A stretch of DNA of 64,000 bases from Balanoglossus misakiensis. Lineage: Eukaryota > Animalia > Hemichordata. A program made the translations under genes and the position numbers. Below, piece by piece: positions 3,475 through 28,500 of the stretch (position 1 is the stretch's first letter; each line of letters begins with the position of its first letter). The notes below the pieces were generated by a model. The model made no database searches, was not told where the DNA came from, and saw nothing but the letters and a program-made list of their open reading frames with translations. The DNA lies in the NCBI GenBank assembly GCA_040954595.2, contig CM082584.2, positions 2,821,344 through 2,885,343 on the forward strand. Direction: 5' to 3'.

Positions 3475-3801
3475 AGCCTGTATAGCTGCCAAATTTCACA
3501 TTTTTCAACAATAAAATACTTCAAATATATTCCCTATCCTCTAAATCCTCAACTTAAGCCATATTACTTGCATTTGCATCAGTTTGTCATCTTTTGGCGA
3601 CGCAAACCACGATAGCTGCGTACTGTTTGTATGGAGGCTGATGAAATGGGTGCGGCACCGTTTTAATACAAAAGTGTTCAAATTGCAACATGCAGTCATA
3701 ATCGGGCATCGATAAGGTGTTCATGTATACCTAAGTAAGCTTATATAGATGGACTAATTTAAGTTGGAAATTAATGCTAAAAAGTGGCAGCTCTAGAGAC
3801 T
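3475..3801. mobile_element. Non-autonomous TTAA-target MITE (Kolobok-like); related copy at 59752-60071
   Basis: TTAA|AGCCTGTATAGCTGCCAAATTT at the left end and degenerate GCAGCTCTAGAGACT at the right. Internal TTGCATCAGTTTGTCATC...GACGCAAACCACGATAGCTGCGTAC is also found, diverged, near 59800. Confidence 0.55.
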
Positions 3802-4913
3802 TTCAATTCCACATTTTCCTGACAATTGTTGGATGTAAATGTATTTGAAATATGTGCTTTGATTGGATTATATGACATAGATTTATTTGAAGGGTGTGTT
3901 TGGATTAGATTATGTGACCATTGGATTTTGGATTTGTGTTCAAGAAGTGTTTGGAAATATAGAAGGGATCTGATGAAAAATGTTCAGGCAATTATTTTAC
4001 CTTGGTCTAGAGTTTTAAAAAAGGGTGCGTGATTTTCATGTTGTTTGGGTATTGATACTATGTTCACTTCCAGTTCTATATTTGCAAATTGAGATATGCT
4101 TAAATGTCCAGTATTCAGCTTATCAACTCTACCAGTATTTTCATTAATAGCAATAAAATTTATGCGTTTATTAAGTCAAATGAGGGACAGTTCTTAATGT
4201 ACACCTTGGAATGAATCAATCAACAACATAATAGATAGGTGAATATTTTTCCTCTATTTTGATGTGAACTTTGCTAAATCCTTTTTATCATTTAAACAAT
4301 GACCTTTGGCTTTTCAGAGACGCGGTCAAGATGTCTCTCCAAATCCGTTTGAGCTCGCGCTCTGATTCGATAGTATCATGCGGATGTTGCTTCATGTGAT
4401 TGGCTAACGTCCTTGTCACGTGACGTGGCATACGTGTGGAACATACGTTCGGAACAACAAACGACACTTGTACGTGTAAATTATGATTACGTATAAAATA
4501 ATTCGGATTATCTCAATTTTTGGCGATCGATCTATAAAAATGAAATTTTGAAGTAAGTAGGCAACCATGGTGATACTTCCGGTGGAACGCCATTCTCGTG
4601 TACGTTAAGGCGTGGGCCCACACAAGGGCGCCCTCTATCGACAGACTGAATACGTTAATCGAGCATAATAAACAATTGTAACCACACCAGCCAATCAGTT
4701 GATGTAATTCATGTTCAAGACAAGCAAATAAAATGAGACATTTCCGAGAAAACCTCCAAAACTATTATCATGTGACAAATAGTGGCATTTTTGGGGTCGA
4801 AAATGATATTCTTAAAAGAAGGCCAAAAATCCACCGCTAGATGCTCACAATCCCATTATTATTTTTTAGTTTCACCTTATGACCCGTCAACTTTCTCTGA
4901 TAGGACTCATACT

Positions 4914-5575
4914 ATAAGGTTATTCACAAAATACCGGGATTTATGTCCGAGTACATCGTGCAGCGCAGGTATTGTCCGAGACGCGCAGCGTCGAGGACAA
5001 TTTGAAGCGTACGATGTACGAGGACATAAATCCCGGTATTTTGTGAATAACCTTATTATTATACACCTTTTCCGGACGTCCTTGATGGACGATAAAGAAT
5101 AAATAGGCCGCTATCGGACTTTCTAGTTTTCAGACGCCGCCATGATGTAATTTGCATATCGAACGCGCCTTCACCTCGCGCATCAGGTGATGCTAGTGTC
5201 GAACTGCCTGTCTCGCGCGCGACGTTCTACGCTGCTGCTTGCGCTGAGCTCGTTCTGGAACTTGAAATGAACGCGCTCGCCTGTTCGTTCACAGATTCCT
5301 TCGACTGAAATTTCAGCGTGGATTTTGACTTATTTCGCATCTTCGGTCACCAATAATTTTGTTTAATAACGGCTGTGTACTTTTTACATAAATTTTCGTC
5401 AGAGTAGGGTTAATATCATCATTGTTTACATTGATCACCAGTCCGAGGACGCGGAGTCCCATAACCCTGTGGGTTATGGGACTTCGCGTCCTCATTTGAA
5501 TAATTATTGTACGGTGATACCGCGAATTATTGTATTACGGAACTCCATAGGTTACAGCAGTAGGTGTATAATAAT
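4914..5575. mobile_element. Double-hairpin non-autonomous element (Crypton-like architecture)
   Basis: 35-bp inverted repeat 4914-4948/5022-5056, directly followed by a second pair TATTATACACCT (5057-5068) / AGGTGTATAATA (5562-5573). Inner hairpin at 5445-5493. No TSD evident. Confidence 0.55.
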
Positions 5576-8314
5576 GTAGTGTATTTCGCTGCCATAATAT
5601 TTTGACGATGTAGATTATCGACTACCCATTGACCGGCAGCCAAAATTCCAACATTTATAGGGTTATGCTGAATCATTAACTTCGTTTTCAAACACAGTAT
5701 CGTAATCTTGAAATGGGCGAACATGTTAACCTTCGATTACGACCTGAGGTGTCAGAAAATAAAGCTGTTTAGCGGTGGATTTTTCATATTTTCCGCCTCG
5801 TAAATTATCCTTACCCTGGGACGCTCGTCCAGGGGCGCCATTACGTAATGCCTTATTTGGCGTGATGCATTGTGGGTAAAATCAGCTGATCGTATACGCG
5901 TATCCTAGCAACTGACATGGACGCTACCATTAGCGCCCGCCCGCGTTCACGATCATTTTAGTGTCGCTACAGTTCAGAAAATCGTGAACATACATAATTC
6001 CCAATCAGTTTGGGATGATTTTTAGTCACAAGTAGTAATTACTGTCACTCATTCATTTATTTAACAAGCCATGACAACATCATATGAGGGAAATAAACCT
6101 TTATTTCAACTTCAATCTGGTGAGTACATGGTTTTCATTTTACCCCATCAAAATAGTGCGTCTTGAAAGGTCAAAGTTCAACTTTTCCTTCGTTCATGTA
6201 AAATTGGCGCCATATTCAAATTGCAGCAGATGATCCCTTCAGCTGTTATTTGGAGGTATGCACTTGTTCAGTTGGCATGTCATCATGGCATTTTGTGGTT
6301 ATTTTATGGCCATAGCTGCAAGAGCAACAAAAGAGCTTTCTAATTCCGAAAAGTCTACTCAGGAAAAGGCTGAAAATACATCAAGATTTATGCCTGTTTA
6401 CAACATATCCATTGGACAAAGGTATGCCAAATATCAGGATATCATGGCTAACAGCAGAAATATGCAAGTTACCAGTTTAAATTTAAACTGCCACGATTTG
6501 AGAAAACACTAAGTGCTTCAGTTCAATGGTTGAATTCCAGGAAAAATGTCAGTATTTCTCCAGCATTTGTCTGCAACTAGTTGGCAAAAACTGCCTTTAT
6601 CAAGGCAAATCCTACACACAGCACTTGACTGTCAAGAGTGCCAAAGTAGCAATGTTGATGTTCTGCTTTTGAACAAGTACTATCAGAAACATATCAAAAG
6701 TCTTCCCTTCTCGACTGTTGAGGTAATTGAAGATGCAATGGGAGAGATGCAACAACTACAAAATCCACATGAGACAAAGCTGACTGTCCCTCTTAAATCT
6801 GCCGTAAGAACTGCCGGACAGCTATATCAGCGAGTAGAGGAGTCATACAATAAAGTGTACTCAACACCTTTCAGTGAAGCGCTTCTCAAAGTTCCGGGGT
6901 TCAAGCTACAGACAAAAATCAGCAAAGAACAGAAAGACAGACGAGCACTTTATACTAATGTCAAGCAAAGCATCGAAAAATCCCACGCTAAAAATGACGG
7001 AGATTTAAAAACAATCCTAGGATCCGGTCAGTCATTTGCTTGCTACGAATCATGTTGACGGTCTGTTGACTTTGAGTCTACCGATTCTGCCAAGAAGCGA
7101 GTAAATCGCCGTCTACAACTAGAATCCCTCAACAAGCTGACACCAAAAGACCATGTTGAAAAAACAGAGTCTGTTGAATGGGACAAAAGCTCATTTGTAA
7201 GTGAACTTTCCAATTATGATGCTGGCAAGGAGGTCAACTGGAGTAGCCTTGCGAGAAAGTACGGGCTAACAGCTGCAAATGGTGGCCAAATACTGAAAGA
7301 GTACGCAACCTCAGCTGGCATCGACACTGACAAGTTCAATATCAATAAGAAGGTTCAAGGTCGAGATTTTGTCAGAAGAGTACACCGTAAAACATTGAAA
7401 GGTCTTGGGGGGAGGTGTCACTTCCTCAACACCGACCAGCAAGAGCCCTGCAAGAAATATTGAAAACAAAAATAAGAAGTGGCGAAATCGACATCGGTGA
7501 ATTAATAGCACCAAAAAAGTTCCAAAAGATGACCATTGGAAAAGATGGCAAATTAAAAGAAGAAACTTATACAATCTACGCTAGAAAAATAAACTTACAG
7601 ACAATCCGAAAACGAGAGCTTGACAGACAAATTAAGCTTGGTGTTCTGAGAAGCCATGTTTATGGGTATGACGACGGTCATTACCAAAACCTAGAAGAAA
7701 AAGAAATAAGGGATGAGCTACAAAGAATACACGAGTTGAAAGAAGGAGAAACCATCGATGAAATGCGCAGTAAATTAAAAAGACTACATCACTCACGGCA
7801 CTTCAAAATATGGCATGACCACAGTACTGTAGGCAACCATTCCCACATTGTCTTCATGGTGAGCTGGATATACGACGCGGCAACATATCTGACAAATGAG
7901 GAGTACTTGGAGAAACACGGAAAAAAAGTAAACGTTGACTCGCTTGTTGAGAAGCCACATCTATATATAATGGGACGATCCAACTCCAATGACGTTGATC
8001 AGCTGTCATATGTTGAAACCAGAGTAGAAGATCTAAAATGTGCAACAGGACCAATAACATCCGACGAAGGTTCCAGGGAATACACAGATGTCCACCGATT
8101 TTTTCATGGCGATGGACCGGCACAGGAGTTTGAGGATTGGCACCAGAAAGGAGGTCACTACCAGTGCATCTGTGGAATAGAGTCAAGAAGACATGATGAT
8201 CTGTCTGCATGTTACCATCTGAAATATCTGTCAATAGATGAGAAACGTAACTTGTTAATCAAGGGCAGCCCAATATGGAGAGAAAAGTCACGGCAAACTC
8301 CCCATCTAGTCCAG

Positions 8315-11300
8315 GAGCTAGCTGCCGTTAATCAGAATTTTTGGTAAGGAAGGTTTGAGAAGTCCATTCTATGTAAAAAATGGTGCTGATTCCAAAAATG
8401 TCAGTCTTATTGACCTCACTCAAGACAAAATTGCCATTTTGGCCATTTTTAACCCAAAATGGTCTTTTTTAGAAAACACTAAAAACACACTGTTTTCGTT
8501 ACATTCTGAGATCTGATGACATATGATATGCTTATTCTATGTAAAATTTGGTGAATATTACGAAAAAAGTAGTCCGATTGACCCAAACAACACAAAATTG
8601 CCTTTTTGACCATTTTTTGCCCAAAAAACGTCATTTTTAGAAAAAATTTAAAACACATGGTTTTCTTCATAATGATTGATCTGGTGATATATGGAAAGTC
8701 AATTCTATGTTAAAAATGGTGACTTTAAAAAATAAAGCAGTCTTTTTGACCTCAATCAATACAAAAATGCCATTTTTGGCCACTTTTTGAGGTCAAAAAA
8801 TGTCATTTTTACAAAAAAACTAAAAACAAATTGTGTTCTTCATATTCAGAGATCATTGGATATATGAAATGTCCATTCTATGTAAAAAAAAATGGTGCTG
8901 ATTCCAGAAATAGCAGTCCTATTGACCCTACTCAAGAAAAAATGTCATTTTTGCCACTTTTTGCCCCAAAAACGTCATTTTCAGAAAACACTCAAAATTT
9001 ATATATTTTCTTCACTTTCGGAGATCTGATAATGTATTATATGCCCAGCCTATGTAAAATTTGGTGATTATTCCAAAAAAAGCAGATTTATTGACCCAAC
9101 CCAATGCAAAAATGCCCTTTTGGAAAGTTTTTGCCCAAAAAGGCCATTTTTAGAAAAAAAAATTAAAAACAAACTTTTCTTCATAAAGCTCAGAGATCAT
9201 GTGATATATGAAATGTTCATCCTATGTAAAAAATGGTGCTGATTCCAGAAATAGCAGTCTTATTGATCCTACTCAAGAAAAAATGTCATTTTTGCCACTT
9301 TTTGCACCAAAAACGTCATTTTCAGAAAACACTCAAAATTTATATATTTTCTTCACTTTCGGAGATCTGATAATGTATTATATGCCCACTATATGTGAAA
9401 AATTTCCAAAAAAAGCAGTTTTATTGATGCCACTCAAGATAAAAGTGCCTTTTTGGCAAGTTTTTGCCCCAAAAGTGTCATTTCTAGAAAACACCCAAAA
9501 ATTGTATATTTTCTTCACTTTCGGAGATGATGATGTATTATATACCCACTCTATGTGAAAAAAATTCCCAAAAAAAGTTTTACTGGCGACACTCAAGAAA
9601 ACAGTGCCCAAAAAGCCACTTTTCGAAAATCATTAAAAACAAACTGTTTTCTTATTATTTGGAGATTCTATGGTGTGTGAAAAGTACATTTATTGTAAAA
9701 TAGGTGTTGTTTCCAGAAATGCAGTCTTAATGACTTCAACCATGATGAAATCGCCTTTTTGGCTAAGTTTTGCACAAAATTGTTATTTTAAAGAATATAT
9801 TAATAGCATTCTCTTTTCTTCACTTTCGGTGATCTTATTATAAATAAAAGCCCATTCTATATTGAAACGTGGTTACTGTTCCAAAAACGGAAGTCTTACT
9901 TACCCTATTCAATTGAAATTTCGGCCACTTTTTTGGTCAAAAATGTTCATTAAAAACGAGCAAACTAAAGATTGTTTTCTTCATATTCAGAGATCTGATC
10001 ATGTATGAAAAGTCCATTCTGTGTAAAATTTGGTGACTATCCCAAAAACGGCAGTCTGGTTGGCCCCACTCTAGTCAAAATTGCCTTTTTGGCTATTTGT
10101 AGCCAAAAAAAGATCTACTCAAGAAAAATTTATCCTTTTAGCCATTTTATACCGAAAAAATGTTTGTATTTGGAGTTTTTGCAAAATTAGCCCAAGTTGA
10201 ACTCATAATGATGATGAAACAGTGTCGAGAGGAAAAGAAGTTACGAATTGAACAAAACTCGCGTCGATGAATGTAAACACGCCGCCCGGGACCAAGCTCC
10301 AAACATGATACAGATGACAAAAGACAGGCATTGCATTGCACAATGCCTAAATATTCCCATACAGCAGTTCCAAATTAAAACGTCAAGGAATTTAAGTGTT
10401 TTTATTATGTTTATTTGGTTTAAGCCCACATTTTTCCTGCTGCGTGCTAGTTCAGGGGCCAGTTTTAGCAGTGCTCTATTGAGTATTCTAGCATCGTTGG
10501 GTTGCACTCCTGTCCAATCAGTATGACGGAGGTATCATGATATAAATTATAATATAATTTCTGATTTTGTATTCAGATTGAAGAGAATAAATTTCAACAA
10601 TCTCTCCCGAGCTGGCATATCTGAACCTAAATATTTCACACCACGCATAATCGACTTATAGTAGACAGTGCGTGTACATGGATCGTCTTATTGTTGAGTT
10701 CAGTTTTGCGCTAAATGTGCCAAATTGTGGCAACTCTGTCTTTCAATATCATCAATTTAATTGATATATGGTTATGACATGCATATACAACATCAGAACT
10801 CAAAAGGCAGACACATCAATTATATTCGTTTTCTGAAAATGACTATTGTTGACCAAAAGATGGCTAAATGGCAATTTTGTACTGAGCGGGGTGTCTCAAT
10901 AAGACCGTTGTGCTGGTATCAGCATATTTTTTGCACACACAAAAAACAAAACAAAAACGAATTTACATACAACACAAGGGCTCTGAATATGAAGGAATAA
11001 GTTTGTATTTATTTTTTCTAACAGTTACCCAAAGAGGCCAAAATGGTATTTTTTCCCTCTGTGGGGTCAGTAAGAGTGGTTATTTTTAATGTCACTACTT
11101 TTATATATCATTAGATCACCAATGGGAAGAAAATGGCATATTTTCGTATTTTCTAGAAATGACACTTTTTGGGCAAAAACTTTCCAAAAAGGCACTTTTA
11201 TCTTGAGTGGCATCAATAAAACTGCTTTTTGGAAATTTTTCACATATAGTGGGCATATAATACATTATCAGATCTCCGAAAGTGAAGAAAATATATACAT

Positions 11301-12319
11301 TTTGAGTGTTTTCTGAAAATGACGTTTTTGGGGCAAAAAGTGGCAAAATGGCATTTTTTTCTTGAGTAGGATCAATAAGACTGCTATTTCTGGAATCAGC
11401 ACCATTTTTACATAGGATGAACATTTCATATATCACATGATCTCTGAGCTTTATGAAGAAAAGTTTGTTTTTATTTTTTTTCTAAAAATGGCCTTTTTGG
11501 GCAAAAACTTTCCAAAAGGGCATTTTTGCATTAGGATGGGTCAATAAATCTGCTTTTTTGGAATAATCACCAAATTTTACATAGGGTGGGCATATAATAC
11601 ATTATCAGATCTCCGAAAAAAGAAGAAAATATATAAATTTTGAGCGTTTTCTGAAAATGACGTTTTTGGGGCAAATAGTGGCAAAAATGGCATTTTTTCT
11701 TGAGTAGGATCAATAAGACTGCTTTTTCTGGAATCAGCACCATTTTTTACATAGAATGGACATTTCATATATCCAATGATCTCTGAATATGAAGAACACA
11801 ATTTGTTTTTAGTTTTTTTGTAAAAATGACCTTTTTTGACCTCAAAAAGTGGCCAAAAATGGCATTTTTGTATTGATTGAGGTCAAAAAGACTGCTTTAT
11901 TTTTTAAAGTCACCATTTTTAACATAGAATTGACTTTCCATATATCACCAGATCAATCATTATGAAGAAAACCATGTGTTTTAATTTTTTTCTAAAAATG
12001 ACGTTTTTGGGGCAAAAAATTGTCAAAAAGGCAATTTTGTGTTGTTTTGGGTCAATCGGACTACTTTTTTCGTAATATTCACCATTTTTTACATAGAATA
12101 AGCATATCATATGTCATCAGATCTCAGAATGTGACGAAAACAGTGTGTTTTTAGTGTTTTCTAAAAAAGACCATTTTTGGGTTAAAAATGGCCAAAATGG
12201 CAATTTTGTCTTGAGTGGGGTCAATAAGACTGACATTTTTGGAATCAGCACCATTTTTTACATATAATGGACTTCTCAAACCTTTCTTACCAAAAATTCT
12301 GATTAACGGCACCTAGCTC
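8315..12319. mobile_element. 4-kb foldback non-autonomous DNA transposon with ~1.2-kb TIRs built of ~125-bp subrepeats (Sola2-like termini GAG...CTC)
   Basis: GAGCTAGCTGCCGTTAATCAGAATTTTTGGTAAG at 8315 matches CTTACCAAAAATTCTGATTAACGGCACCTAGCTC ending at 12319. Arms match to ~9495/~11145. Flanks CCAG/CTAG form a near-identical 4-bp TSD. It splits the host transposase ORF. Confidence 0.85.
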
Positions 12320-13470
12320 CTAGGGTAATCCATTTGCCAACTTAACAGTGGCCGACCTTAGGAGAGAGCTTGATGCTAGGGGTGATGAAACCGAAGGATT
12401 AAAGAAGCCAGACTTACAATCTAAACTCTCTGAAATTTTACATTGTATGCAGAGAGTACCAGCACTGCTCCATCTCACTCCAGAATGTAATCTTGCTGAA
12501 ATAAACTGCTCTGCATATGAAATTTTGCCATCAGAGCCACTCCATGACCTGAAGGGACACATCCACAATGTGTTAGAAGAAATTTCAGCACAAACCAAGG
12601 ATAAATAAGAAGCAGTAAAGTTACAGAACTTTATTCAGGCAACATATGGTGGTAAAGACGAAATTCGGGGATGCGATGCACACAAAGCTATCCTTCTGGT
12701 GTCCCAGTATCTTCACGAGAACAACATAAATACTGAGCATGGTCAGCTTATTGACACGCTTGCTGAAATAAGCGAAACTGCTTATAAACATGACAATGAC
12801 AGATGCCCACGACTGATTCTGCGATTGTATAACACTGTATTTTTGCATGGAATATTGTGCAAAAGGGTATTTGAGAAGCCAAAGAAACTTACCAAACGAA
12901 ACATGTTCGGGCGGTATTTCCATAACATCACCGTCCATCTACCTGATCAACTGAGATTGGTTTCTCTGAGGTCAACAAATGCTGAAAACCAGGAGCGAGT
13001 TTTCAATCGAATACGGAGAGTGACGAAAACAACTTCCTCCAAGCGTCCAGGTGGTATCATAGGTAATGCCATGATACGTCTAGGTGCAGAAGAAGAGATG
13101 ACAAAAGAAAGAGATCCATCACAAATTATAGAATCTGAAATTAGCAAAATTGGAAAGCAGCTCCCAAAACGTCAGAATACAGTAATCCCTGAGGACGAAA
13201 TACTGCGACGACCAACACTACTGCAAAGCCACTATGAAAGGATTGCAGATTTCTTGCTGCCAGGAGAAGGTGTATTGTGGCAGAGACATGAGGAAGCAAT
13301 AGAGTTTTTAACTCTGATACCCAGGATGATTTCAAGGTATCTGCAGTGCAATTTAGTCCCAAATATTTTAACTCACACTTTTATTTCTTTTCAATAACAA
13401 TTACTGTTGATTATATGCAGACATAATACAACAGATTGCATGGTGTTTTGGGACAGGAAAAACTAATCTA

Positions 13471-16400
13471 AATTAAAGCTGCAAGCAGCGTTGGTGGGGC
13501 ACAAGCGGTTCCCATGGTAACCAGCAAATGCCAAGGCTGTATCTGCTGTGGATACCAAGATATGGGAAAGTAGGGCAAAGGTCACCTGAGGTCACCCCAA
13601 ATTTGGGCAAAAAAAATCGGACCCCATACTAGTCTAGGTCCAACAAAAACCAGACCCCTAGCTCCATTGGTTCGCCTAGAAATAGGTATGTGCATAATTA
13701 ATGAGGTCTTGTGTAAGACTCCATTATGTGCTCCACTGGCTGCCCAAAAGCCAGGACTCTAACTGCTGCGGATGCTGAGATATGGGAAAGTAGATCAAAG
13801 GTCATCCAAGGTCATCCAAAATTTGGGTATAAAATTTTGAGCCCAGAGTGGGCCATGTCCAACTAAAACCAGACCTCTAGCCCTATTGGTTAGCCTGGAA
13901 TTAGATATGCAGAAAAATGATGTTTCAGAAATAGGTCAAGGGTCATTGCCATGGGAAAGTAGATCAAAGGTCATCCAAGGTCACCCAAAATTTGGGCATA
14001 AAATTTTGACCCCAGAGTGGGCCATGTCCAACTAAAACCAGACCTCTAGCCCTATTGGTTAGCCTGGAATTAGATATGCAGAAAAATGATGTTTCAGAAA
14101 TAGGTCAAGGGTCATTGCCAAAATTACCAAAAGATTTGTGTCATGTCCTGGCAGCATTGGTACCCATGTCCACAAAATTCATGACTGTGGTGCTTTGACA
14201 AGAGGAGGTATGGGGAATACGCATATATAATTAGTTGTTTTAAAACTGGGTCAAAGGTCATGTGCAAATTGCCCCGAAAAATTGTAACAACTTCCGGTCA
14301 TATGACGACTCATATCCAAAAAAAGAATTTCCGTGCTGTCAACATTTTGGCTACAAAACGGAATTTTCACTTTTCAATGGTTTTCCGAAAATCCAACATG
14401 GCCGCCATAATGATCGACCAATCACAGTGCGCTTCGCAAACTTGATAGACATAGGTTAGGTGACCACATCCCCCGATATCCCGTGACTCGGCAATCGCTG
14501 GTTCTGGAGAAGAAGATTTTTAAAGTTTTAAGCAGTTTTTCAGAAAAACAATTGTAGCAAAAAAACTGTATGTGTGACGTCATGATTTCAATGGGGTAAA
14601 ATGATGGACAGAAGATAGGCTACCTGCACACCAAATTTAAACTCGATCAGCCCAGTGGTTTTTGAGAAGGACTCGTTTAACGATTTTCAGGAAATCCAAT
14701 ATGGCCGCCAGGTCACGTGACTAATTAAATATTCATGAGCCACTGCACGTCTACTCATTGGCCCCTATCACCCTACCAAGTTTCAGGCCCCTAGGTGCTG
14801 CCGTTTTCCAGATCTACCTGGCCGAATTTTGGAGAAGAAGAAGAAGAATAAGAAGAATTAAAGCTGCAAGCAGCATTGTCCGGGCCCAAGCTCTATTATC
14901 TGATCAGATTATTAGATATGCACATAATTAATGAGTAGAAACATAATGCTGTGTTTTATCCCATGAAATATCAACGTTATATCTATGTTTGGTGCTGATA
15001 TAGTGTTAAGTAGGTCAAAGGTCATCTGAGGTCACCCAAAATTTGGGCAGAAAATTTTGACCCATAGTGGTCCATGTCCAACAAAAACCAGACCTCTAGC
15101 CCTTTTGGTTAGCCCGGAATTAGGTATGCACATAAATAATGAGTTAAGCAGGTGTCACAGGTGACCCAAAACTTTGGCTTTTCATTATGGCCCCATACCT
15201 CCAAACGCCAAGGCTGTATCTGCTGTGGATGTCGAGATATGCAAAAGTAGGTCAAAGGTCACCCGAGGTCACCCAACATTTGGGCAAAATTTTTTGACCC
15301 AATACTGGTCCATGTCCAACAGAAACCAAACCTCTAGGTCTATTGGTTCATCTATAATTATGTATGCACATATTTAATGAGGTCAGCAGAGGTCAAAGGG
15401 GTCATGAAAAGTAGCGAAATTTTTTGATCACATACAAATCCACATACATCAAAAACCAAAATGATAGCCCTATAGGTTAGCCTGGAATTAGATATGCAGA
15501 AAAAACGATGTGTCAAAAGTAGGTCAAAGGTCATTGCCAAAATTACCAAAATATTTGGGGTAGGTCCTGGCAGGGGTGATACCAATGTGCACAAAAATCA
15601 GAACTCTGGTACATTTAGAACAGGTAGTATGAGCTATATATGCATATATGCAGGTTCTTAAAAAAGTAGGTCAAAGGTCATGTGAAAATTGCCAAAAAAT
15701 TTGCAACATATTCTAGTCATATGACGACTCATATCCACAAAAAGAATTTGTATGCTATCTATTTTTAGACTAGAAATATGATTTCTTAATTTTCGCTGGA
15801 TTTTACAAAATCCAATATGGCCGCCATAATCTTCGACCAATCACAACGCTCTTCGCAAACTTGATAGACATCAGTTAGGTGATGTCATACCCTAAATCCC
15901 ATGACTCGGTTATTGCCGGTTCTGGAGAAGAAGATTTTTGAAGATTTTACTGTACTTTTTCGAAAATCCAATATGGCGGCCAAAGTCACGTGACCGCTCA
16001 GGATTTTATTGTCAAACTTTGAAGGGCAGAGGACATGTGTACCATACACCAAATTTGAACTTGATTGGCCCTGTGGTTTTTGAGAAGAAGCCATTTAAAG
16101 ATTTTCAGAAAATCCAATATGGCCGCCAGGTCACGTGACTAATTAAATATTCACAAGCCACTGCACATCTACTCATTGACCTTGACCACTGTAGCAAGTT
16201 TGAGAAGTGTACCTGTAGCCGTTTCAGAGATCTAGGAGAGCAAAGATTGACATAAGAATAAAGAAAGAAAAATTCCAACGAAACCAATACGGGCCCAAGC
16301 CTGGCTTGGCTTGGGCCCGTAATTAAAGCTGCAAGCAGCATTGTGGGGCCCAAGCGCTGATCCGGTATTATATATGCACAGTATGAATGAGAAGAAACAG

Positions 16401-19400
16401 AATGCTCTATCAGGTGTTTTATCTCATGACATAACAAGGACGTATGTATTTTTCCTGCTGAAATAGTGTAAAGTAGGTCAAAGGTCACCTGAGGTCACCC
16501 AACATTTGGGCAATATTTATTGACCCATACTGTTCCATGTCCAACAAAAACCAAAACTCTAGCTCTATTGGTTCGCCTGAAATTAGGTATGTGCATATTT
16601 AATGAGGTCAGCAGATGTTACAGGTGACCCAAAAATGTGGCTTTACATTTTGGTCCCATCCTACCAAATGCCATGGCTGTATCTGCTCTGGATGCTGAGA
16701 TATGCGAAAGTAGGTCAAAGGTCACCAGAGGTCACCCAACATTTGGGCAAAAATTTTTGACCCCATACTGGTCTATGTTCAACAAAAAACAAACCTCTAG
16801 CTCTATTGGTTCGCCTGTAATTAACTATGCACATAATTAATGAGGTCAGCAGAGGTCAAAGGGGTCATGAAAAGTAGCAAAATATTTTGATCACACACTA
16901 ATCCACATGCATCAAAAACCAAACGTCTAGCCCTATAGGTTAGCCTGGAATTAGATATGCAGAAATAATAATGTGTGAAAAGTAGGTCAAAGGTCATGTA
17001 AAAAATCGCCAAAAATTTGTAACATATTGTAGTCATATGACGATTGATATCCATAAAAATAATTTGTATGCTATCAATTTTTATACTAGAAAAAGTAATT
17101 TTAATTTTTCACTGCTTTTTACAAAATCCAATATGGCCGCCATAATCTTCGACCAATCACAATGCTCTTTGCAAACTTGATAGACATCAGTGTAGTGACC
17201 ATACTCCCCGAATCTTGCGACTCAGTCATCGCCCGTTCTGGAGAAGAAGATTTTTGGAGTTTAACTATGGTTTTTCGAAAATCCAATATGGCCGCCATAA
17301 TCTTCGACCAATCGCAATGATCTTCGCAAACTTGATAGACATCAGTTAGGTGACCACATACCCCAAACTCCGTGTCTCATTTATCACCGGTTCTGGAGAA
17401 GAAGATTTTTGAAATTTAAGCCAGATTTCAGAAAAAAAATTGTAGCAAAAAAACTGCAACATTGACAGCAAAATTTCCAATTACAAAAATGATAGGTAGA
17501 AGGTAGTCTACCTGCATGCCAAATTTGAAGTCGATCTGACTTGTAGTTTCTGAGATCTGAGATTTGCATTTTTTCAGAAAATCCAATATGGCCGCCAGGT
17601 CACGTGACTAATTAAGTATTCACAAGTCACTGCACATCTACTCATAGACCTTGACCACTGTAGCAAGTTTGAGCAGTGTACCTGCAGTAGTTTCAGAGAT
17701 TTAGTTGGCCGAAGAATTGACACAAGAAAAAAGAAAGAAAGAAAGAAAGAAAGAATTAAAGCTGCGAGCAGCATTGTCGGGCCCAAGCGCTGATCTTGAA
17801 TTATATATGCACAGTATGAATGAGAAGAAACAGAATTTTCTATCGGATGTATTATCTCATGACATAACAAGGATGTGGGTATTTTTGCTGCTGAAATAGG
17901 GTGAAGTAGGTCAAAGGTCACCTGAGGTCACCCAACATTTGGGCAATTTTTTTTACCCATACTGGTCCATGTCCAACAAAAACCAAAACTCTAGCTCTAT
18001 TGGTTCACCTGTAATTAGGTATGTGCATATTTAATGAGGTCAGCAGGTGTCACAGGTGACCCAAAAATTTGGCTTTACATTTTGGTCCCATCCTACCAAA
18101 TGCAATGGCTGTATCTGCTCTGGATGCTGAGATATGAGAAAGTAGGTCAAAGGTCACCAGAGGTCACCCAACATTTGGGCAAAAAAATTTGATCCCATAC
18201 TGGTCCATGTCCAACAAAAACAAAACCTCTAGCTCTATTGGTTCGCCTGTAATTAGCTATGTACATAATTAATGAGGTCAGCTGAGGTCAAAGGGGTCAT
18301 GGAAAGTAGCAAAATATTTTGATCACACACTAATTCACATTCATCAAAAACCAAACATCTAGCCCTATAGGTTAGCCTGGAATTAGATATGCAGAAATAA
18401 TAACGCGTGATAAGTAGGTCAAAGGTCATGTGAAAAATCGCAAAAAAATTGTAACATATTTTAGTCACATGACGATTGATATCCATAAAAACAATTTGTA
18501 TGCTATCAAATTTTAGACTAGAAAAAGGAATTTCAAATTTTCACTGCTTTTTACAAAATCCAATATGGCCGCCATAATCTTCGACCAATCACAATGCTCT
18601 TTGCAAACTTGATAGACATCAGTGTAGTGACCATACTCCCCGAATCTTGCAACTAAGTCATCGCCCGTTCTGGAGAAGAAGATTTTTGGAGTTTAACTAT
18701 GGTTTTTCGTAAATCCAATATGGCCGCCATAATCTTCGACCAATCACAATGATCTTCGCAAACTTGATAGACATCAGTTAGGTGACCACATACCCCAAAC
18801 CCCGTGTCTCGGTTATCACCGGTTCTGGAGAAGAAGATTTTTGAAATTTTGACCAGATTTCAGAAAAACAACTGTAGCAAAAAAACTGCAACATTGACAA
18901 CAAAATATCCAATTACAAAAATGATGGGCAGAAGGTACACTACCTGCACACCAAATCTGAAGTCGATCTGACTTGTAGTTTCTGAGATCTGAGATTTGCA
19001 TTTTTTCAGAAAATCCAATATGGCCGCCAGGTCACGTGACTAATTACGTATTCACAAGTCACTGCACATCTACTCATTGACCTTGACCACTGTAGCAAGT
19101 TTGAGCAGTGTACCTGCAGTAGTTTCTGAGATTTAGTTGGCCGAAGAATTGACACAAGAAAAAAGAAAGAAAGAAAGAATTAAAGCTGCAAGCAGCATTG
19201 TCCGGGCCCAAGCTCTATTATCTGATCTGATGCTAATATAGTGTTAAGTAGGTCAAAGGTCACCCGAGGTCACCCAACATTTGGGCAAAATATTTTGACC
19301 CCATACTGGTCCATGTATAACAAAAACAAAACCTCTAGGTCTATTGGTTCATCATTAATTAGGTATGCGCATATTTAATGAGGTCACCAGAGGTCAAAGG

Positions 19401-20497
19401 GGTCATGAAAAGTAGCAAAATGTTTTGATCACATACAAATCCACATACATCGAAAACCAAACTTATAGCCCTATTGGTTAGCCTGGAATTAGATATGCAG
19501 AAAAATGATTCGTCAAAAGTAGGTCAAAGGTCATTGCCAAAATTACAAAAATATTTATAGCTTATTCTTGTCATATGATGATTCATATCCATAAAAAGAA
19601 TTTCTGTGCTATCAATTTTTAGGCTAGAAAAGGAATTTTTACTTTTTAATCGTTTTTCACAAAATCCAATATGGCCGCCATAATCTTCAACCAATCACAT
19701 TCCCCTTCGCAAACTTGATAGACATCCGTTTAATGACCACACACACCAAATCTTGTGACTCGGTTATCGCCCGTTCTGGAGGAGAAGATTTTTGAAGTTT
19801 TACTATGGTTTTTCGAAAATTCAATATGGCCGCCATAATCTTTGACCAATCACAATGATCTTCGCAAACTTGATAGACATCAGTTAGGTGACCACATAAC
19901 CCAAACGGCGTGACTCGGTTATCGCCGGTTCTGGAGAAGAAGATTTTTGAAATTTTGACCAGATTTCAGAAAAACAACTGTAGCAAAAAAACTGCAACAT
20001 TGACAGCAAAATATCCAATTACAAAAATGATGGGCAGAGGGTATACTACCAGCACGCCAAATCTGAAGTCGATCTGACTTGTAGTTTCTGAGATCTGAGA
20101 TTTGCATTTTTTCAGAAAATCCAATATGGCCGCCATGTCACGTGACTAATTAAGTATTCACAAGTCACTGCACATCTACTCATTGACCTTGACCACTGTA
20201 GCAAGTTTGAGAACTGTACCTGCAGCGGTGTCTGAGATCTAGAGCGCGAAAGAAATGAACCAAGAATAAAGAAAGAAAGAAAAACCCCAACGAAACCAAT
20301 ACGGGCCCAAGCCTGGCTTGGCTTGGGCCCGTAAAAACCCCAACGAAACCAATAGGGCCCAAGCGCAAGCAAGCGCTTGGGCCCTAAAAACCCCAACGAA
20401 ACCAATAGGGCCCAAGCGCAAGCAAGCGCTTGGGCCCTAAATATTCCAACAATAACAATGGGGGCACAAGCCGCCTGAGGGCGCTTGTGCCCCCAAA
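13471..20497 (-). mobile_element. Cluster of five nested Helentron-type non-autonomous elements (HINE-like) with internal satellite-like repeats
   Basis: 3' hairpins GCTGCAAGCAGC at ~13478, 14863, 16328, 17761 and 19184. 5' subTIR palindromes at ~16290-16320 and stacked at 20300-20495. (GAAA)n/(GAA)n microsatellites lie next to the 5' ends; internal GGTTCTGGAGAAGAAGATTTTT repeats. Confidence 0.8.
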
Positions 20498-20656
20498 TAT
20501 AGTATCAAAGCATCAAAAATTACATCTATACATGCCCTGTCTTTTTCATGGAACTTTTCTGTCAAGCAGGTTCTGTTATTTTTTGTGACGAGCAACCTCC
20601 ATTTTTACAAATAATAGAACTATTCTCGGATATCCCACATTTTTTATGGTTTCTAA

Positions 20657-20997
20657 AAAGGTCTCTCACTCGCTGCCCTTTTTCTTTTTGTGTTTGATAC
20701 AAAACACCATTTATGTTAATGTACATGTGTATATGTAGTGAATGAACGTTCAACCACACACAAGTTCCACCATGCTTGTATATAAGAGTAAAATCTCGCC
20801 CAAAATGAATAAATGGTAGAGACCGATTGTTCATTTTGGCAAGGTTTTTCACTCTCGTGTCTACAAGCGGGATGGAAGGTGTGTGTGGTTGAATGTTCAT
20901 TCAGTATATATCCACATGTACATTAACATAAACAGTGTCTTGAATGAAACATAATATTAATGGGAAAAGGGCAGCGAGAGAGAGAGACTTTGTCCCT
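20657..20997. mobile_element. Kolobok-like palindromic MITE (TTAA target), left end degraded
   Basis: Ends GAGAGACTTTGTCCCT|TTAA; same family as 38869, 41860 and 52778. Confidence 0.75.
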
Positions 20998-22329
20998 TTA
21001 ACAGCATGCAAATCCTTATTTATTTTGGAAAATTATATTGTAAAAATTGTCCAAGATTATAGTACTTACATTAGCCATTGGTGTTGTGTGTAAACTGTTA
21101 TATAAAGAATGTTTGATCAATCTCCTTACCTGTTTATTTCTATAGGAACCAGGACCTCATCTGCATCATTTCCGGTCATAATCTCTGCAAAAGGTACAAT
21201 GTGATATCAACAGGTGTTGGTAAGATTGTGTGGACAGAGTAAGAAGTGAAGCAATTGCTTTACCAATCCACAAGATAAAGCTCTATGACAGCAATGGTGA
21301 AAGAAGTGGTAGCCTCACTGTCACAGGCTTTCAAGATGATAGCAGACGTAAGAGCATATTACATCACAGTCAAACCAAATAAGTGACTTCATCTGTATGC
21401 ATATAATTTTGGGGGAAACATTACTTTCAAAAATATGAATTTCTTTCACTTCAGCCTGTCAAAATTAATTGACCTATATATACCCAGCCATGTTCAACTT
21501 TCAATACCACATGAATTCAATGAAAGTATATCTAATGGGCGAAATGTGTTGCTTCTCGCCTGATTTAGCAAAATTGAGTGACATAAATACTGGCTGGAAC
21601 GGCTTAGTTAAATGAACTTTTGAAAGTATTTTTGAATTATGATTAGTCTATCACAGTAATAAATTTTGAAATAACACTATATAATTCAAGCACTACAAAA
21701 AAATGTCAATATTTAATACTACCTTATAGAATCCGAGGAAATTCCAGAGCATCCAATTGGTGTAGATGATGATGACCATGACTTGTTGATTGATCCTGGT
21801 TCCCATGAACACATCCTCTCAGTAGAAGATGATATACTTGCCCCTGATATCACCATGGACATGAATGACATCGAGCCGACAAGTGTACCTGAAAGGAACA
21901 TAACATTACATGGTAGCAATGCTGAGGAGACCCGTTGCAGTATACCAATAGAAGATACAAGACAGACACAGCATAGTACAGGGGAAGACATCAACATGAC
22001 AGACTGTGATTTGGAAACAGAGCACACTGAGGAGACAGTTGAAGCAGAAAGGATGGAAGTCAATGGTATGGAAAATTGCTGCACTCAAGAAGGTAACTAT
22101 TACTATAGTGAAGTTACCATGTATGGGATTGTTCATTTCAAGGTTCCACTCATTCTTATTTCCTCCCCCCCCACCATCCCCAAATAAATCTGCAAGCCCA
22201 CATTCCAAACACTTAGTTATGTCACAGTGCAGGAGATAGTCATTTCAATTTTATTTTAGAAAGGAAAGATAAATGTGTGTGAGCGGGAAAAGATATGAAA
22301 CATGACACACCCACATATATGTACATTTA

Positions 22330-22761
22330 TAATATACCTCATGCTAATACTGTGCCGTGATTCGCCAGAATCCGTCACGTGATAGGAAAATAGAATCGAC
22401 TATGAACCGCTAGGGAAATAGCAGAAAAAATATAAACCGGTCACGTGACCCGCGTGAGTGCGCAGACTCGGTCACGTCAATCAGCGTCGCGTCGTCTGAC
22501 ACAATGGCCACCACTGAAGATGTCGTCTGCCAGCCTCAAGAAAAAATTGCAAGATTTTCCCGGCTGTTAGCATGAGGTTTATTATAAAACACCTATAGCC
22601 TGGCCTATATTCGGGCCATAGCAGCCGTTTTTACCCCCTCGTGACTGTGAGTTACCAGAATCATATGCTATTTCCCTCGGCCGCATATGATTCTGGTAAC
22701 TCACAGCCCCTCGGGTGTAATAAACGGCCGCTATGGCCCTCATGGCCAGGCAATAGGTGTT
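22330..22761. mobile_element. Double-hairpin non-autonomous element (Crypton-like)
   Basis: ATAATATACCTCATGCTAA / TTAGCATGAGGTTTATTAT (22330-22585), followed by AACACCTATAGCCTGGCC / GGCCAGGCAATAGGTGTT (22588-22761). Confidence 0.55.
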
Positions 22762-24583
22762 CAATATTTCATGTTGACCTTGTGGAACCCCAGGTCAGTT
22801 TAAGTGGCCCAAAAGGAAATCACTTTAAGAAAAACTCATTATTATTGCTGTTAAACCTTAATGTTGTTTTCTTGTTTGCATTCAGGCAAGTCAAGTATCA
22901 AAGAAGTTGCCAAATCAACAGCAAAGATAACAGCCACACATGAACAGTCATCAATCTCAGAGTAAAGTTAGTGATACTTCTTCAACCACGATGGACAGTC
23001 TGATATTTGTCCTTTGGAGAGACAAAAGAAGTCAAATAATTTGATAAATCACGAAATTCTTTGAAGGCCCTTCCCAATGATAAGAAGTTAATAAATGAAT
23101 ATATAGAAGCTAAGGTGAAAGTAGGAACAAAGCTGATGAAATCATACAGAATAGCCAAGCTGTCAATCAAAGAGTGGGAACAAGAATATTGCATAAATCA
23201 TTGGGGTGGTGCACCAAATTTGGAAGATTACAAGAGAAATAAACGTATATCGAAATTGTACAAACAAACAAAAATGGCAACACATTTTTTGAAACGCTGG
23301 AATATTGATTATAACTGAGAGGTGAAGTATTTCCAAGTGTATGTGCATGCAATTTGATTACTCAGTGTGGACATATTTTGTACACTACACGTACATTCAG
23401 AAATATGGCATATTTTTCTAATGACATGGAGATTTTTGTGACTTCTGATGCAGAGTAAATATACAAGATATTGTTAACTTTGGTGAATTTAAGTTCATTT
23501 TGTTGTGGTTTAAATTACTGTAAATAATTTTTCCAAATGTTTGCATTGTATAATTTACTTCCAAATCAGATGTTCTTTCCTTGTCATTTGCTACCAACAT
23601 TTAGTACCAAATGCATGGCATTTGTATGTCTGTGTTCAGGCTGTGGCCACAACCAATCTTGTAGCTGTGGCTGAGACTTTCAATTTTCTGCTTGATGTTA
23701 ATAAACAATAACTTTGTAGTTTTGAATTTTGATGGAAAGGCAATCATCTATATTTGTCACTCATAAAAATGCACATTTCTTGACAATGTTGTTGAACCAC
23801 TTCTCCCAAAATAATGGGACCCTTTGGTTTCAACCCCCAACCTGGCAGTGTTCAAATCTCACATTGTAAACACCACCTGCACTTTGTTAATACAAGGAGA
23901 CTGGAAACAGTGTGCTACACAATAAATTGAGACAAAGGAGTGTTACAAGACTTAACAAACAAGTAATTAACATATGGCCTAGTTGCACAGGAAAATGCTA
24001 CAAACAAGTTTTTCCCGCCCAAGTCAGACTGTGCGTGGCGTGGGTCCATAGCTGCAGCTGTGGTGTTTTCTGGCTAATTGTTTTCCTTTTTACGGGCTCT
24101 TTTTCCGTGTCGATCAGAAAATTGCCCGCAAAATGTCAGACAAAAATTGCCAGAAAACACCACTGCTATGACCCAGAATGAGATTATACTTAGGCCGTCC
24201 TCTGCATGCCATACTATCGATCGCACGTACCGAACGAAACTCGCATCACATGCAATCCGAAAATAGCTGATAAGAACTAACCTTCATTGTACAGTTTACC
24301 GTAAAAAGCAGTCTTACACCGACGATTACGTTGGCAGGAAATGAAGGCATCGACTAAAACAACATGAATCGGATGTACCGCGTACCGCCCACACGATGCA
24401 CATGTCTGTCGCGATACAATACCATAGACTATTTTACTTCTGTCCATTCGCTCGCAAACATCGTTTTCTGAATGTGTTATGAGCTTTGGGCACATTTAAG
24501 GACCGAAACGGGGAGATTTTTGACATTTTTTTGCCGAATTTTCGTCAAAACCTCGCCATTTCGGTCCACGCCCGCCCACACAT

Positions 24584-25297
24584 CATGGAGGTACTAGAGA
24601 GAAGTAGCGAGGACGCTATTGTTTCCTATAAACCCCATGTGCGTCTTAATCTGTTTGCAGATATCATTAGGATCTCATCCTTTCATCACCTGATAGGCGT
24701 TCATAAAAGCTGTGCGCTTGCGTAGATAAACAAATTATAGCTGGCGGCGTGTCTCCATGATTTACATTTAGCATATTCAACCAGACCAAACTGCTGTGCC
24801 GAAAGTCTCTGCACTAGCAATTACAATGGTGACTATCGGGCATCCCACACCATCCCACGCGAACAAAAATACTTGCATCGGGAAGATTGGTTTTCAAAGA
24901 AAACCTAAGAACTTATTGTTTTTTGCGGAAATTTGCGAAAAACTCAAAATATACATTTCAAAATCATGCTTTTTGGTTGTACAAAGAAGAAAAATAATGC
25001 CACAAGTCTTCCAAGACGTCCGCCTGACACGTTTCCGGTAGTGGTGATGTAAATAAAAGTCACCACGCATATGTAGTACGCTCGTCCGCGATGTGCGCAT
25101 AGTGTTTTTAATATCATAGAAATATTACCCCGTAGATCTTGCAAACCTAACTGTAAAATCGGCGGTAACGCACAGTGGGTTCAAAGGACGCTTTCAACAC
25201 AGAAACACAAAGACTTAAGAAGCTTATCACTCTTCAGAAGAAAGGGAGTTAATCCGCTTAAAATCCGTCCTCGCTCCTTCTCTCTAGTACCTCCATG
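24584..25297. mobile_element. P-element-like MITE
   Basis: TIRs CATGGAGGTACTAGAGAGAAG(T/G)AGCGAGGACG at both ends; 7-bp TSD CACACAT at 24577-24583 and 25298-25304. Confidence 0.85.
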
Positions 25298-25551
25298 CAC
25301 ACATGAAACCACGCAACCACGAGGCTGAAGCCTTGGAAACCACCTAAGCTCGGCAATGCGTGTGTGCTCATGAATATGTAATATCTAATTCGCATATTCA
25401 TGAAAAAGTAACCAAAAAACAGGAAAACATTTTTAAAATACCAATAAAAAATTAAAAAAACTAAACATTTGCAGTTTTTCTTTATTTACAATTTGATATA
25501 TTTTTAGATTTTCAGTCAACATTTTTTTAATTTTTCGAGTTTTTTTTAAAC

Positions 25552-28500
25552 ATGCCGGGTTCAGAGATTTGTCCTTCCATGACTAGGGAAGCAATCAGGG
25601 ATCGTAACATACGTCGGGTGCGGGATAACACTGTCCGCGGAAATGTTGATTTTGTTGCCCCAACTACTGAAGATAAGACAGCAATTCAACGTAAAATTTC
25701 AAAGCTTCGAACTCTGATGAAGGAGGGTAGGGCAACAAATTTTGACGTGTTATCAACGGTACTTGATTTCTTCCTGACGAGTCCCGAAACGAACGGCAAT
25801 GGTGGTATGCGTGACGAACCAGAAGAAGGTGCTTTCCACGAACCCGTGTACCAGAGGTGTCCAATAGAACGGACTGATGACCAGATGTATTTGACAACGA
25901 CCCTCTCTGTCCAGAACCTCGTAAAAACTGTCGAATCACACTCCGGAGCATGTCGAGGAACTCTTGCCTCAAAGCGCACGACTATGATGGGCCACGCGGG
26001 GAGGGTCAGTTTCAAGTGCGAGGAAGGTCACGGATTCAATTGGAATTCTTCGCCGTATTTACCGAACGGGGGACTACTCGTCAACTACAGGTAAATGTAA
26101 ATACAGTGACATTGTACGATACGGACTTATATTGTTTTTAGGGGCACAAGCCTATCGGGCTTGTGCCCCTATTGGTATTGTTGGAATATTTCTTCTTTAT
26201 TGGGGGCACAAGCGCCCTCAGGCGGCTTGTGCCCCCATTGTTATTGTTGGAATATTTCTTTATTACGGGCCCAAGCCAAGCCAGGCTTGGGCCCGTATTG
26301 GTTTCGCTGGGGTTTTTCTGTCTTTCTTTCTTTCTTTATTCTTGGTTCCATTCTTTATCGCTCTAGATCTCAAACACCGCTGCAGGTACAGTTCTCAAAC
26401 TTGCTACAGTGGTCAAGGTCAATGAGTAGATGTGCAGTGACTTGTGAATACTTAATTAGTCACGTGACATGGCGGCCATCTTGGATTTTCTGAAAAAATG
26501 CAAATCTCAGATCTCAGAAACTGCAAGTCAGATCGACTTCAAATTTGGCATGCTGGTAGACTACCTTCTGCCCATCATTTTTGTAATTGGAAATTATGCT
26601 GACAAAGTTGCCGTTTTTTTGCTACAATTTTTTTTCTGAAATCTGGCCTAAATTTCAAAAATCTTCTTCTCCAGAACCGGTGATAACCGAGACACGGGGT
26701 TTGGGGTATGTGGTCACCTAACTGATGTCTATCAAGTTTGCGAAGATCATAGTGATTGGTCCAAGATTATGGCGGCCATATTGGATTTTCGAAAAACCCT
26801 AGTAAAATTTGAAAAATCTTCTACTCAAGAACCGGTGATAATCGAGTCACAAGATTTGGTGTGTGTGGTCATTAAACAGATGTCTATCAAGTTTGCGAAG
26901 ATGAATGTGATTGGTCGAAGATTATGGCGGCCATATTGGATTTTGTGAAAAACGATTAAAAAGTAAAAATTCCCTTTCTAGCCTAATAATTGATAGCACA
27001 GAAATTCTTTTTATGGATATGAATCATCATATGACAAGAATAAGCTATAAATATTTTGGTAATTTTGGCAATGACCTTTGACCTACTTTTGACGCATCAT
27101 TTTTCTGCATATCTAATTCCAGGCTAACCAATAGGGCTATAAGTTTGGTTTTTGATGTATGTGGATTTGTATGTGATCAAAAAATTTTGCTACTTCTCAT
27201 GACCCCTTTGACCTCTGCTGACCTCATTAAATATGCACATACCTAATTAATGATGAACCAATAGACCTTGAGGTTTTGTTTTTGTTATACAGTATGGGGT
27301 CAAAATATTTTACCCAAATGTTGGGTGACCTTGGGTGACCTTTGACCTACTTTTGCATATCTCGACATCCACAGCAGATACAGCCTTGGCGTCTGGAGGT
27401 ATGGGGCCATAATGAAAAGCCAAAGTTTTGGGTCACCTGTGACACCTGCTTAACTCATTATTTATGTGCATACCTAATTCCAGGCTAACCAAAAGGGCTA
27501 GAGGTCTGGTTTTTGTTGGACATGGACCACTATGGGTCAAAATTTTCTGCCCAAATTGTGGGTGACCCCTGGGAGACCTTTGACCTACTTTACACTATAT
27601 CAACACCAAACATAGATATAACCTTGATATTTCATGGGATAAAACAGAGCATTATGTTTCTACTCATTAATTATGTGCATATCTAATATCAGATCAGATA
27701 ATAGAGCTTGGGCCCGGACAATGCTGCTTGCAGCTTTAATTATTCTTCTTCTTCTTCTTCTTCTTCCCCAAAATTCGGCCAGGTAGATCTGGAAAACCGC
27801 AGCACCTAGGGGGCTGAAACTTGGTAGGGTGATAGGGGCCAATGAGTAGACGTGCAGTGGCCCGTGAATATTTAATTAGTCACGTGACCTGGCGGCCATA
27901 TTGGATTTCCTGAAAATCGTTAAATGAGTCCTTCTCAAAAACTACTGGGCCGATCGAGTTCACATTTGGTGTGCAGGTAGCCTACCTTCTGTCCATCATT
28001 TTACCCCATTGAAATCATGACGTCATACATAAAGTTTTTTTGCTACAATTGTTTTTTCTGAAAAACTACTTAAAACTTTAAAAATCTTCTTCTCCAGAAC
28101 CAGCGGTTACCGAGTCTCGGGATTTGGGATATGTGGTCACCTAACCTATGTCTATCAAGTTTGCGAAGCGCACTGTGATTGGTCGATCATTATGGCGGCC
28201 ATGTTGGATTTTCGGAAAACCATTGAAAAGTGATAATTCCGTTTTGTAGCCAAAATGTTGACAGCATGGACATTCTTTTTTTGGATATGAGTCATCATCT
28301 GACCGGAAGTTGTCACAATTTTTCAGGGCAATTTTCACATGACCTTTGACCCAGTTTTAAAACAACTAATTATATATGCATATTCCCCATACCTCCTCTT
28401 GTCAAAGCACCACAGTCATGAATTTTGTGGACATGGGTACCAATGCTGCCAGGACATGACACAAATATTTTGGTAATTTTGACAATGACCTTTGACCTAT

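Follow-up and report, generated by a model that had tools for sequence, protein, structure and literature searches.

A dead DDE transposase with an internal SAP motif and a predicted RAG1/Transib-like fold in the hemichordate Balanoglossus misakiensis

The DNA analysed here, referred to as the window, is a stretch of 64,000 nucleotides of AT-rich, repeat-dense sequence from the hemichordate Balanoglossus misakiensis (GenBank assembly GCA_040954595.2, contig CM082584.2, positions 2,821,344 to 2,885,343). It contains a decayed transposase gene, which we interpret, with a probability of about 85%, as an inactivated DDE transposase of a large marine-invertebrate family that has a predicted RAG1/Transib fold, bears a SAP motif in its zinc-binding domain and likely forms a cut-and-paste lineage of its own in the CMCT clade. 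The family is likely a new lineage of this known clade, distinguished by an unusual internal SAP domain.

To map the window gene, we used a family profile built from 46 long relatives, which places it in five collinear pieces (6282-7397, 7400-8323, 12321-13310, 21146-21310 and 23004-23309). The match is far beyond chance, since the E values reach 5e-128, 2e-109 and 5e-54. An initial annotation, made from the sequence alone, had reported both catalytic aspartates (D7817 and D8111), the catalytic glutamate (E12993), an LH-D motif, an H-x4-H pair and a SAP motif, and all of them were found at those positions and in the expected order. The gene is organized as follows.

6285-7400, + strand: N-terminal third of the transposase, with a stop at 7056 and frameshifts
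6615-6641, + strand: HTALDCQEC, putative zinc site C...H-x4-C-x2-C in the N-terminal third
7233-7304, + strand: VNWSSLARKY...NGGQ, predicted helix-turn-helix (HTH) inserted in the DDBD-like region
7400-8306, + strand: pre-RNase H and RNase H region, with both catalytic D residues and the C-x-C pair
7805-7825, + strand: KIWHDHS, catalytic D codon at 7817
8099-8119, + strand: FFHGDGP, catalytic D codon at 8111
8150-8176, + strand: GGHYQCICG, C-x-C zinc pair at 8165-8173
12339-12428, + strand: SAP motif helices, in the zinc-binding insertion domain, after the Cys pair and before the LH motif
12429-13337, + strand: remaining insertion domain, catalytic E, C-terminal domain (CTD) and start of the tail, with a stop at 12606 and a frameshift near 13305
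12534-12560, + strand: EPLHDLKGH (LH motif)
12912-12938, + strand: RYFHNITVH, with H-x4-H at 12921-12938
12975-13010, + strand: TNAENQERVFNR, catalytic E codon at 12993
13338-21145, + strand: GT-AG intron, containing a repeat insertion of about 7 kb and a miniature inverted-repeat transposable element (MITE)
21146-21346, + strand: conserved exon GPHLHHFRS...W..C...P, with stops at 21179 and 21221
21717-22187, + strand: acidic low-complexity open reading frame (ORF), likely an unconserved linker exon
22995-23318, + strand: conserved helical C-terminal domain, with a frameshift near 23013, ending at the TGA at 23316

The N-terminal third comprises, in this order, the putative zinc site, a predicted Myb/trihelix-like HTH and the DDBD-like region with its inserted HTH. 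Homology to the relatives begins at about 6282-6285 (MAFCGYF), and the gene start at 6071 that had been proposed found no support. The proposal of a spliced acidic C-terminal tail needs correction. The exons at 21146-21340 and about 23004-23318 are conserved (E 3e-10 with the profile, E 2e-17 to the relative P0332), whereas the acidic ORF at 21717-22187 did not match the family profile; the relatives carry low-complexity linkers at this position. The copy is dead, as had been stated, because it has stops (7056, 12606, 21179 and 21221), several frameshifts (near 6470/6545, 7400, 13305 and 23013) and two nested insertions.

The window gene belongs to a widespread family. A word-indexed search returned 32 relatives with 30-42% identity. 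A HMMER search, clustered at 50% identity, yielded 1,468 clusters at E<=1e-30, 4,747 at 1e-10 and 7,858 at 1e-3, of which the best 150 were examined, and the counts in the weak tiers may be raised by matches to the SAP motif only. Members with names were found in the sponge Ephydatia muelleri, the coral Oculina patagonica, three lancelets, the acorn worm Ptychodera flava and the bivalves Crassostrea virginica, Magallana gigas, Mytilus and Argopecten. With one exception, these carry an uncharacterised or hypothetical label, and no member among them is called a transposase. A separate set of ten proteins carried no names. The closest protein relatives of the window copy are from P. flava, where P0116 is 77% identical. 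All motifs were found in order by a strict pattern in 39 of the 48 members of at least 1,000 amino acids, and full-length members with every motif occur in oyster, coral, sponge and lancelet. In P0093 and P0065, the transposase N-terminus is immediately preceded by the motif GDVEKNPGP / NDIETNPGP, which we take to be a 2A-like motif. In limited searches, no relative turned up among viral or prokaryotic contigs by pattern, and no viral protein matched the fold at E<=0.001.

The catalytic and zinc-binding residues are almost invariant. In an alignment of 144 sequences, numbered according to the oyster member P0001, the D/D/E triad proposed by the initial annotation is conserved in 98-99% of the aligned rows (D508 in 105/107, D606 in 118/121 and E889 in 105/106), and the three residues occur together in 69 of the 70 rows that cover all three columns. 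The zinc ligands are equally well kept, at 98-99% (C624 in 121/122, C626 in 123/124, H868 in 109/110 and H873 in 104/106), as is H738 (128/129). After the second D, the cysteines are spaced as C-x2-C in 88 of 124 rows, as C-x-C in 20, which is also the form of the window copy, and as C-x3-C in 11. The two aspartates lie 97 residues apart, and the median distance from the second D to the E (D2-E) is 280 residues (69 rows). A separate N-terminal ligand set, C4, H127, C132 and C135, is 98-100% conserved.

The SAP motif is a fixed part of the family and not an add-on of one copy, because each of the 116 rows that cover both the Cys pair and the LH motif has, judged by aligned length, a segment of SAP length between them, with conserved SAP residues (L674, E682, L683, R686, K695 and L698, in 77-93%). 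The placement of this motif inside the insertion domain, as originally described, is thus a family trait. The helix-loop-helix pattern L..xxL+xEL..RG...G.K..L...L is present in the family. In the window, the piece 12324-12605 matches Pfam SAP with an E value of 2e-4 and 21.3 bits, just below the cut-off of 23.9. Among the relatives, 13 of 22 match SAP at E<=1 (best 8e-10), and five of 32 exceed the curated cut-off of the Pfam entry (PF02037). When the profile of 144 sequences was compared with the PDB, its best sequence matches were three solved SAP domains, with 1zrj at E 7e-5.

To assess the fold, we used an AlphaFold2 model of P0001 (mean predicted local distance difference test score 90.6, predicted template modelling score 0.77). 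The model places D508 on the first strand and D606 just past a later one, while E889 is at the start of the helix that follows the insertion. The predicted architecture is an RNase H fold carrying D/D/E, with a C2H2 zinc site split across the insertion domain and N-terminal HTH modules. Foldseek returned 46 matches at E<=0.001, and among the matches listed only RAG1 (best, 4e-10), ProtoRAG (4e-5) and HzTransib (8e-5) occur. In VIA-align, RAG1 was again the best match to the model, with a Z score of 17.2 and a root mean square deviation (rmsd) of 4.8 over 455 residues (model 229-930 on RAG1 459-1004), followed by HzTransib (14.5), ProtoRAG (13.7), the P element (10.7), ISCth4 (8.3) and Hermes (6.8). 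A structure search of 48,161 chains that did not use Foldseek gave the same ranking, so the RAG1-like fold suggested earlier agrees with the model of this relative. A separate model of the first 406 residues yielded no Foldseek match at E<=0.001, and weak VIA-align matches, with Z scores of at most 6.0, for Myb/trihelix-type domains (residues 1-80), for HTH domains (257-317) and, in the helices around that HTH, for the RAG1/Transib DDBD. The DDBD match pairs model residues 200-350 with RAG1 459-510 and HzTransib 21-74, with an rmsd of 2.2 over 52 residues. Residue equivalence to RAG1 is predicted from motif order and secondary structure. Residue numbers of RAG1 other than H795 and E962, including D600 and D708, are those that we presume or that the initial annotation gave.

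A 2025 overview defines the CMCT clade by DDE together with a C(2)C and an H(3-4)H motif, and lists seven lineages (PMC12730594). In the family, conservation and the model together indicate a DDE triad within an RNase H fold that carries a large insertion. A C(2)C motif follows the second D, both cysteines being 99% conserved and spaced C-x-C in the window, and an H(3-4)H motif precedes the E (window 12921-12938). The family thus has the protein hallmarks of the CMCT clade and lacks those tested for Transib, RAGL and Chapaev. Together with the fold match to RAG1 and Transib, this supports the earlier assignment to a RAG1/Transib/CMC-clade transposase.

The closest resemblance is to the RAG1 core of mouse and zebrafish (PDB 6XNY, 4WWX and 6DBI), which is the best fold match from the DDBD to the CTD (Z 15-17 over about 455-465 residues) and has the same order of D, D, Cys pair, LH, H-x4-H and E-x-x-E. 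However, the identity is only 12-13%, with no match at the sequence level. The family has the SAP insert, so that Cys and LH lie 114 residues apart as compared to presumably 65 in mouse RAG1, where the Cys numbering is the one we assume. It also has an extra HTH in the DDBD-like region, extra C-terminal domains and no RING, and no RAG2 was seen beside the window copy. Transib, represented by HzTransib (PDB 6PQX and 6PQN), is likewise encoded by one gene and shares the fold (Z 14.5), a DDBD-like module and the zinc site, whereas the family protein is about twice as long and carries the SAP insert. This insert accounts for part of the excess in D2-E spacing, 280 as compared to 206-214 in Transib and 253 in RAG1 (values from part of PMC1131882). 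Transib heptamer ends with a 5-bp duplication were not found around the decayed window copy, the ends of which were not located. RAGL/ProtoRAG (BbeRAG1L; PDB 6B40) shares the fold (Z 13.7) and overlaps in its hosts (acorn worm, lancelet, oyster and coral). On the other hand, the identity is 9-10%, and no convergent kelch gene was seen beside the window copy. The CTT* motif CxxCxxxGHxxxxC, a RAGL feature according to part of PMC7204232, occurs in none of 341 family proteins (48 of them at least 1,000 amino acids long), nor does a RING pattern.

Chapaev transposases have an N-terminal two-zinc Chapa domain, with or without a RING, in the relevant parts of 10.64898/2026.01.24.700457 and PMC4411706. 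The family keeps only four N-terminal Cys/His residues (C4, H127, C132 and C135) and therefore has no two-zinc Chapa domain. No Pfam transposase family, EnSpm, Plavaka, KDZ and Academ DUF6589 included, was listed for 32 relatives at E<=0.01 or for 22 at E<=1, and the Pfam profiles Transposase_21, Plavaka and DUF1280 were not matched. Zisupton/KDZ transposases are, like this family, DDE transposases with a SAP domain. There, SAP lies outside the catalytic core and is accompanied by SWIM/CxC and protease domains, which were not seen in the family, and no Pfam KDZ match was obtained. Academ was compared by Pfam, with no DUF6589 match, and through the portion of PMC10045372 that describes it. For EnSpm, Mirage, Chapaev, Plavaka, ESTA and Lanisha, the main text of the overview mentions no SAP insert (PMC12730594). 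Our literature search, the scope of which lay outside Repbase Reports and most subscription journals, found no paper describing the family and none joining SAP with a transposase, and a term search of PMC8355894 gave no match.

Near-identical copies on different large contigs of one species indicate that the family has been mobile. Copies of one cluster at 90% identity lie on three different large contigs in Oculina and likewise in Ptychodera, and on two in Crassostrea virginica. Within-species pairs are 97-100% identical, and sub-families that are 37-61% identical exist as well. A quick tree of 25 rows placed the window copy beside P. flava P0116 with 99% support and showed no horizontal transfer. 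The tree and the range of identities fit an old residence with repeated local bursts.

The element ends were sought in several ways. Inverted-repeat scans, exact and ungapped, that compared 2300-6300 with 23300-26300 and 1-6100 with 30170-64000 yielded no convincing pair. For the CMCT-type termini 5'-CA..TG-3' with duplications of 2-5 bp, no pair rose above the shuffle level around the decayed copy: the scan found 31 pairs as compared to 13±4 in crude shuffles, and we claim no end pair, since the best score of 13/16 equals the shuffle maximum. Of 12 metagenome loci, none held both ends, and an inverted-repeat scan of five of them produced no candidate. A RAG2-like partner was not detected, with no ORF of at least 100 amino acids in 23320-25550 and no Pfam match in five flank ORFs, a result that covers one dead copy with short flanks. 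The flanks of the window copy have no coding similarity to the flanks of other loci. The neighbouring Mutator-like gene was rejected as a partner, because it is a separate transposase type in the same direction.

Several points weigh against the proposed interpretation. The members of the 25-row tree group by host phylum, which is in keeping with vertical residence since long ago and is not in itself a sign of mobility, and neither a terminal inverted repeat nor a target duplication was found around this decayed copy. The modelled protein is not the window copy itself, but an oyster relative about 39% identical to it. The rmsd values are high (4.8-5.5 A), and the N-terminal HTH matches are weak (Z 4-6). 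Atlas feature scores, which serve as leads only, put EnSpm (Transposase_21) and Plavaka (0.88-0.89) level with or above RAG1 (0.86-0.88). Moreover, few CMCT-type structures have been solved, and the proximity to RAG1 may reflect the solved set.

The strongest competing explanation is that Repbase or Dfam already lists the family, labelled as EnSpm, Chapaev, Transib, Academ or unclassified DNA; only the SAP motif and the fold would then be new. The Pacific oyster and the lancelets, in which members occur, have genomes that are heavily curated by Repbase, and new CMCT lineages such as Lanisha have been published only in Repbase Reports (PMC12730594). However, none of the relatives examined matched a Pfam transposase, the main text of the seven-lineage overview lacks the word SAP, and no literature pairing SAP with a transposase was found. 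Prior cataloguing is quite possible, at somewhat short of even odds.

It is unlikely that the family is a highly diverged true member of Transib or RAG1L. RAG1, ProtoRAG and HzTransib do top the fold searches, and the DDBD is part of the match, but the identity in structural alignments is 9-14%, as compared to an average of 26% across groups for Transib and RAG1L cores (PMC9435367). In addition, two family profiles, one of them of the 144 sequences, detected no RAG1 or Transib chain at E<=10; the D2-E spacing exceeds both published values, and the CTT* and RING patterns are missing. A domesticated host gene family, with the window locus as its pseudogene, would explain the lack of ends, the clustering by phylum and the introns of some members. 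The many near-identical dispersed copies, the many fragments per genome, the long branches and the catalytic triad, intact across the family, make this very unlikely.

The mechanism of the proposed CMCT transposase can be sketched from RAG1 and HzTransib, which cleave via a nick and a hairpin (part of PMC10629977). By analogy, a homodimer would use its N-terminal HTH and DDBD-like modules to bind the ends of the element, nick at the element end, make a hairpin on the flank and join the ends to target DNA. The insertion domain would fold around one zinc. The D/D/E residues would work with two metals. Given that SAP motifs bind DNA with little sequence preference, the motif likely adds a sequence-independent grip on flanking or target DNA. 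In the family, SAP occupies the place where, as we presume, helices 11-12 of RAG1 lie, between the Cys pair and H795. These helices bind RAG2 and lie in the zinc domain (PMC9435367). By this analogy SAP might stand in for RAG2, which we regard as doubtful. Equally tentative is the view that the family could be an undescribed superfamily-level lineage, with more than 1,000 clusters from sponges to lancelets, that is the nearest structural relative of RAG1/Transib and in which SAP would do, within one chain, the work of RAG2 in holding and bending flanking DNA.

The transposase gene is interrupted and flanked by the following insertions.

8307-12327: nested fold-back non-autonomous DNA element, splitting the transposase core, with a 3-bp duplication ATC
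about 13473-20494: 7-kb repeat insertion, inside the GT-AG intron 13338-21145
4913-5574: 662-bp insertion upstream of the transposase, missing from the contigs of all four sequencing runs compared

The core insertion had been drawn at 8315-12319. Its borders were corrected by the ATC duplication and by contigs of the runs X1 and X2, from one sample, which join 8303 to 12328 without the fold-back element. The junction 8303/12328 gives back the reading QTPHPFA, with the counterpart QTIHPFA in P0116. The element has long inverted arms of about 170-bp subrepeats and the termini TAG...GTA; with its 3-bp duplication it resembles non-autonomous Academ elements, of which we take such termini to be a feature. 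Academ elements make target duplications of 3-4 bp, according to part of PMC10045372.

The intron insertion at about 13473-20494 has a related repeat element in the opposite orientation at about 26129-30171, each lying within an intron, with modules of 1.2-1.4 kb, subrepeats of 155-169 bp and no long ORF. A palindromic MITE of roughly 340 bp occurs in four copies that are 70-82% alike (20662-21001, 38865-39061, 41856-42214 and 52774-53130), the first of them in the transposase intron. Small elements at 24584-25297 and 22326-22766 are bounded by inverted repeats of 32 bp and 22 bp. The second transposase type is an intron-rich gene at 25549-33700 (+ strand) with the motifs DARHG, HGHD, NDTWH and VESFNN and a 4-kb insertion within its first intron; P0342 of P. 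flava, 68% identical to it, matches the Pfam Mutator-like family PF20700. Elsewhere in the window lie an integrase-core ORF at 422-1459 (- strand; Pfam rva_4, E 2e-25) beside a 52/105-bp tandem array at 1791-2286 with the palindromic core TCTCGAGATCTCGAGA, a long interspersed nuclear element at 47787-52259 (- strand) that has an ORF upstream of an open endonuclease/reverse-transcriptase frame of 1,165 amino acids, and a Harbinger-type DDE_Tnp_4 fragment at 53127-53759 (- strand).

Across 3822-26138, the depth of the run X1 contigs is even, about 1,290-1,530 for each of them, as compared to 27 for a diverged copy of the inserted repeat. These contigs lack the nested insertions and keep the stops at 21179 and 21221, with no change listed at 7056. 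Contig depth is not copy number. The figures may reflect either the amplification, by some tens of times, of a large block with the dead gene and the gene next to it, or a very deep run with alleles. An active multi-copy family in the host was rejected as unshown, because the contigs keep the stop codons of the window.

The window copy is a fossil, and the interest lies in the family. RAG1/Transib enzymes are the source of antibody-gene recombination, and among the solved structures compared here they are represented only by RAG1, ProtoRAG and HzTransib. An animal lineage that is widespread, shares the predicted fold at about 12% identity and escapes all Pfam transposase profiles tried would widen the RAG1/Transib family and provide an outgroup. 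In the literature searched, we met no paper with a DNA-binding SAP module placed in the zinc domain. If SAP indeed does the work of RAG2 in a superfamily-level lineage, the family, of which intact members exist, would offer a natural outgroup without RAG2 for the question of how the V(D)J recombinase came to have a partner. The full-length members permit tests of the hairpin chemistry, the choice of target and the role of SAP.

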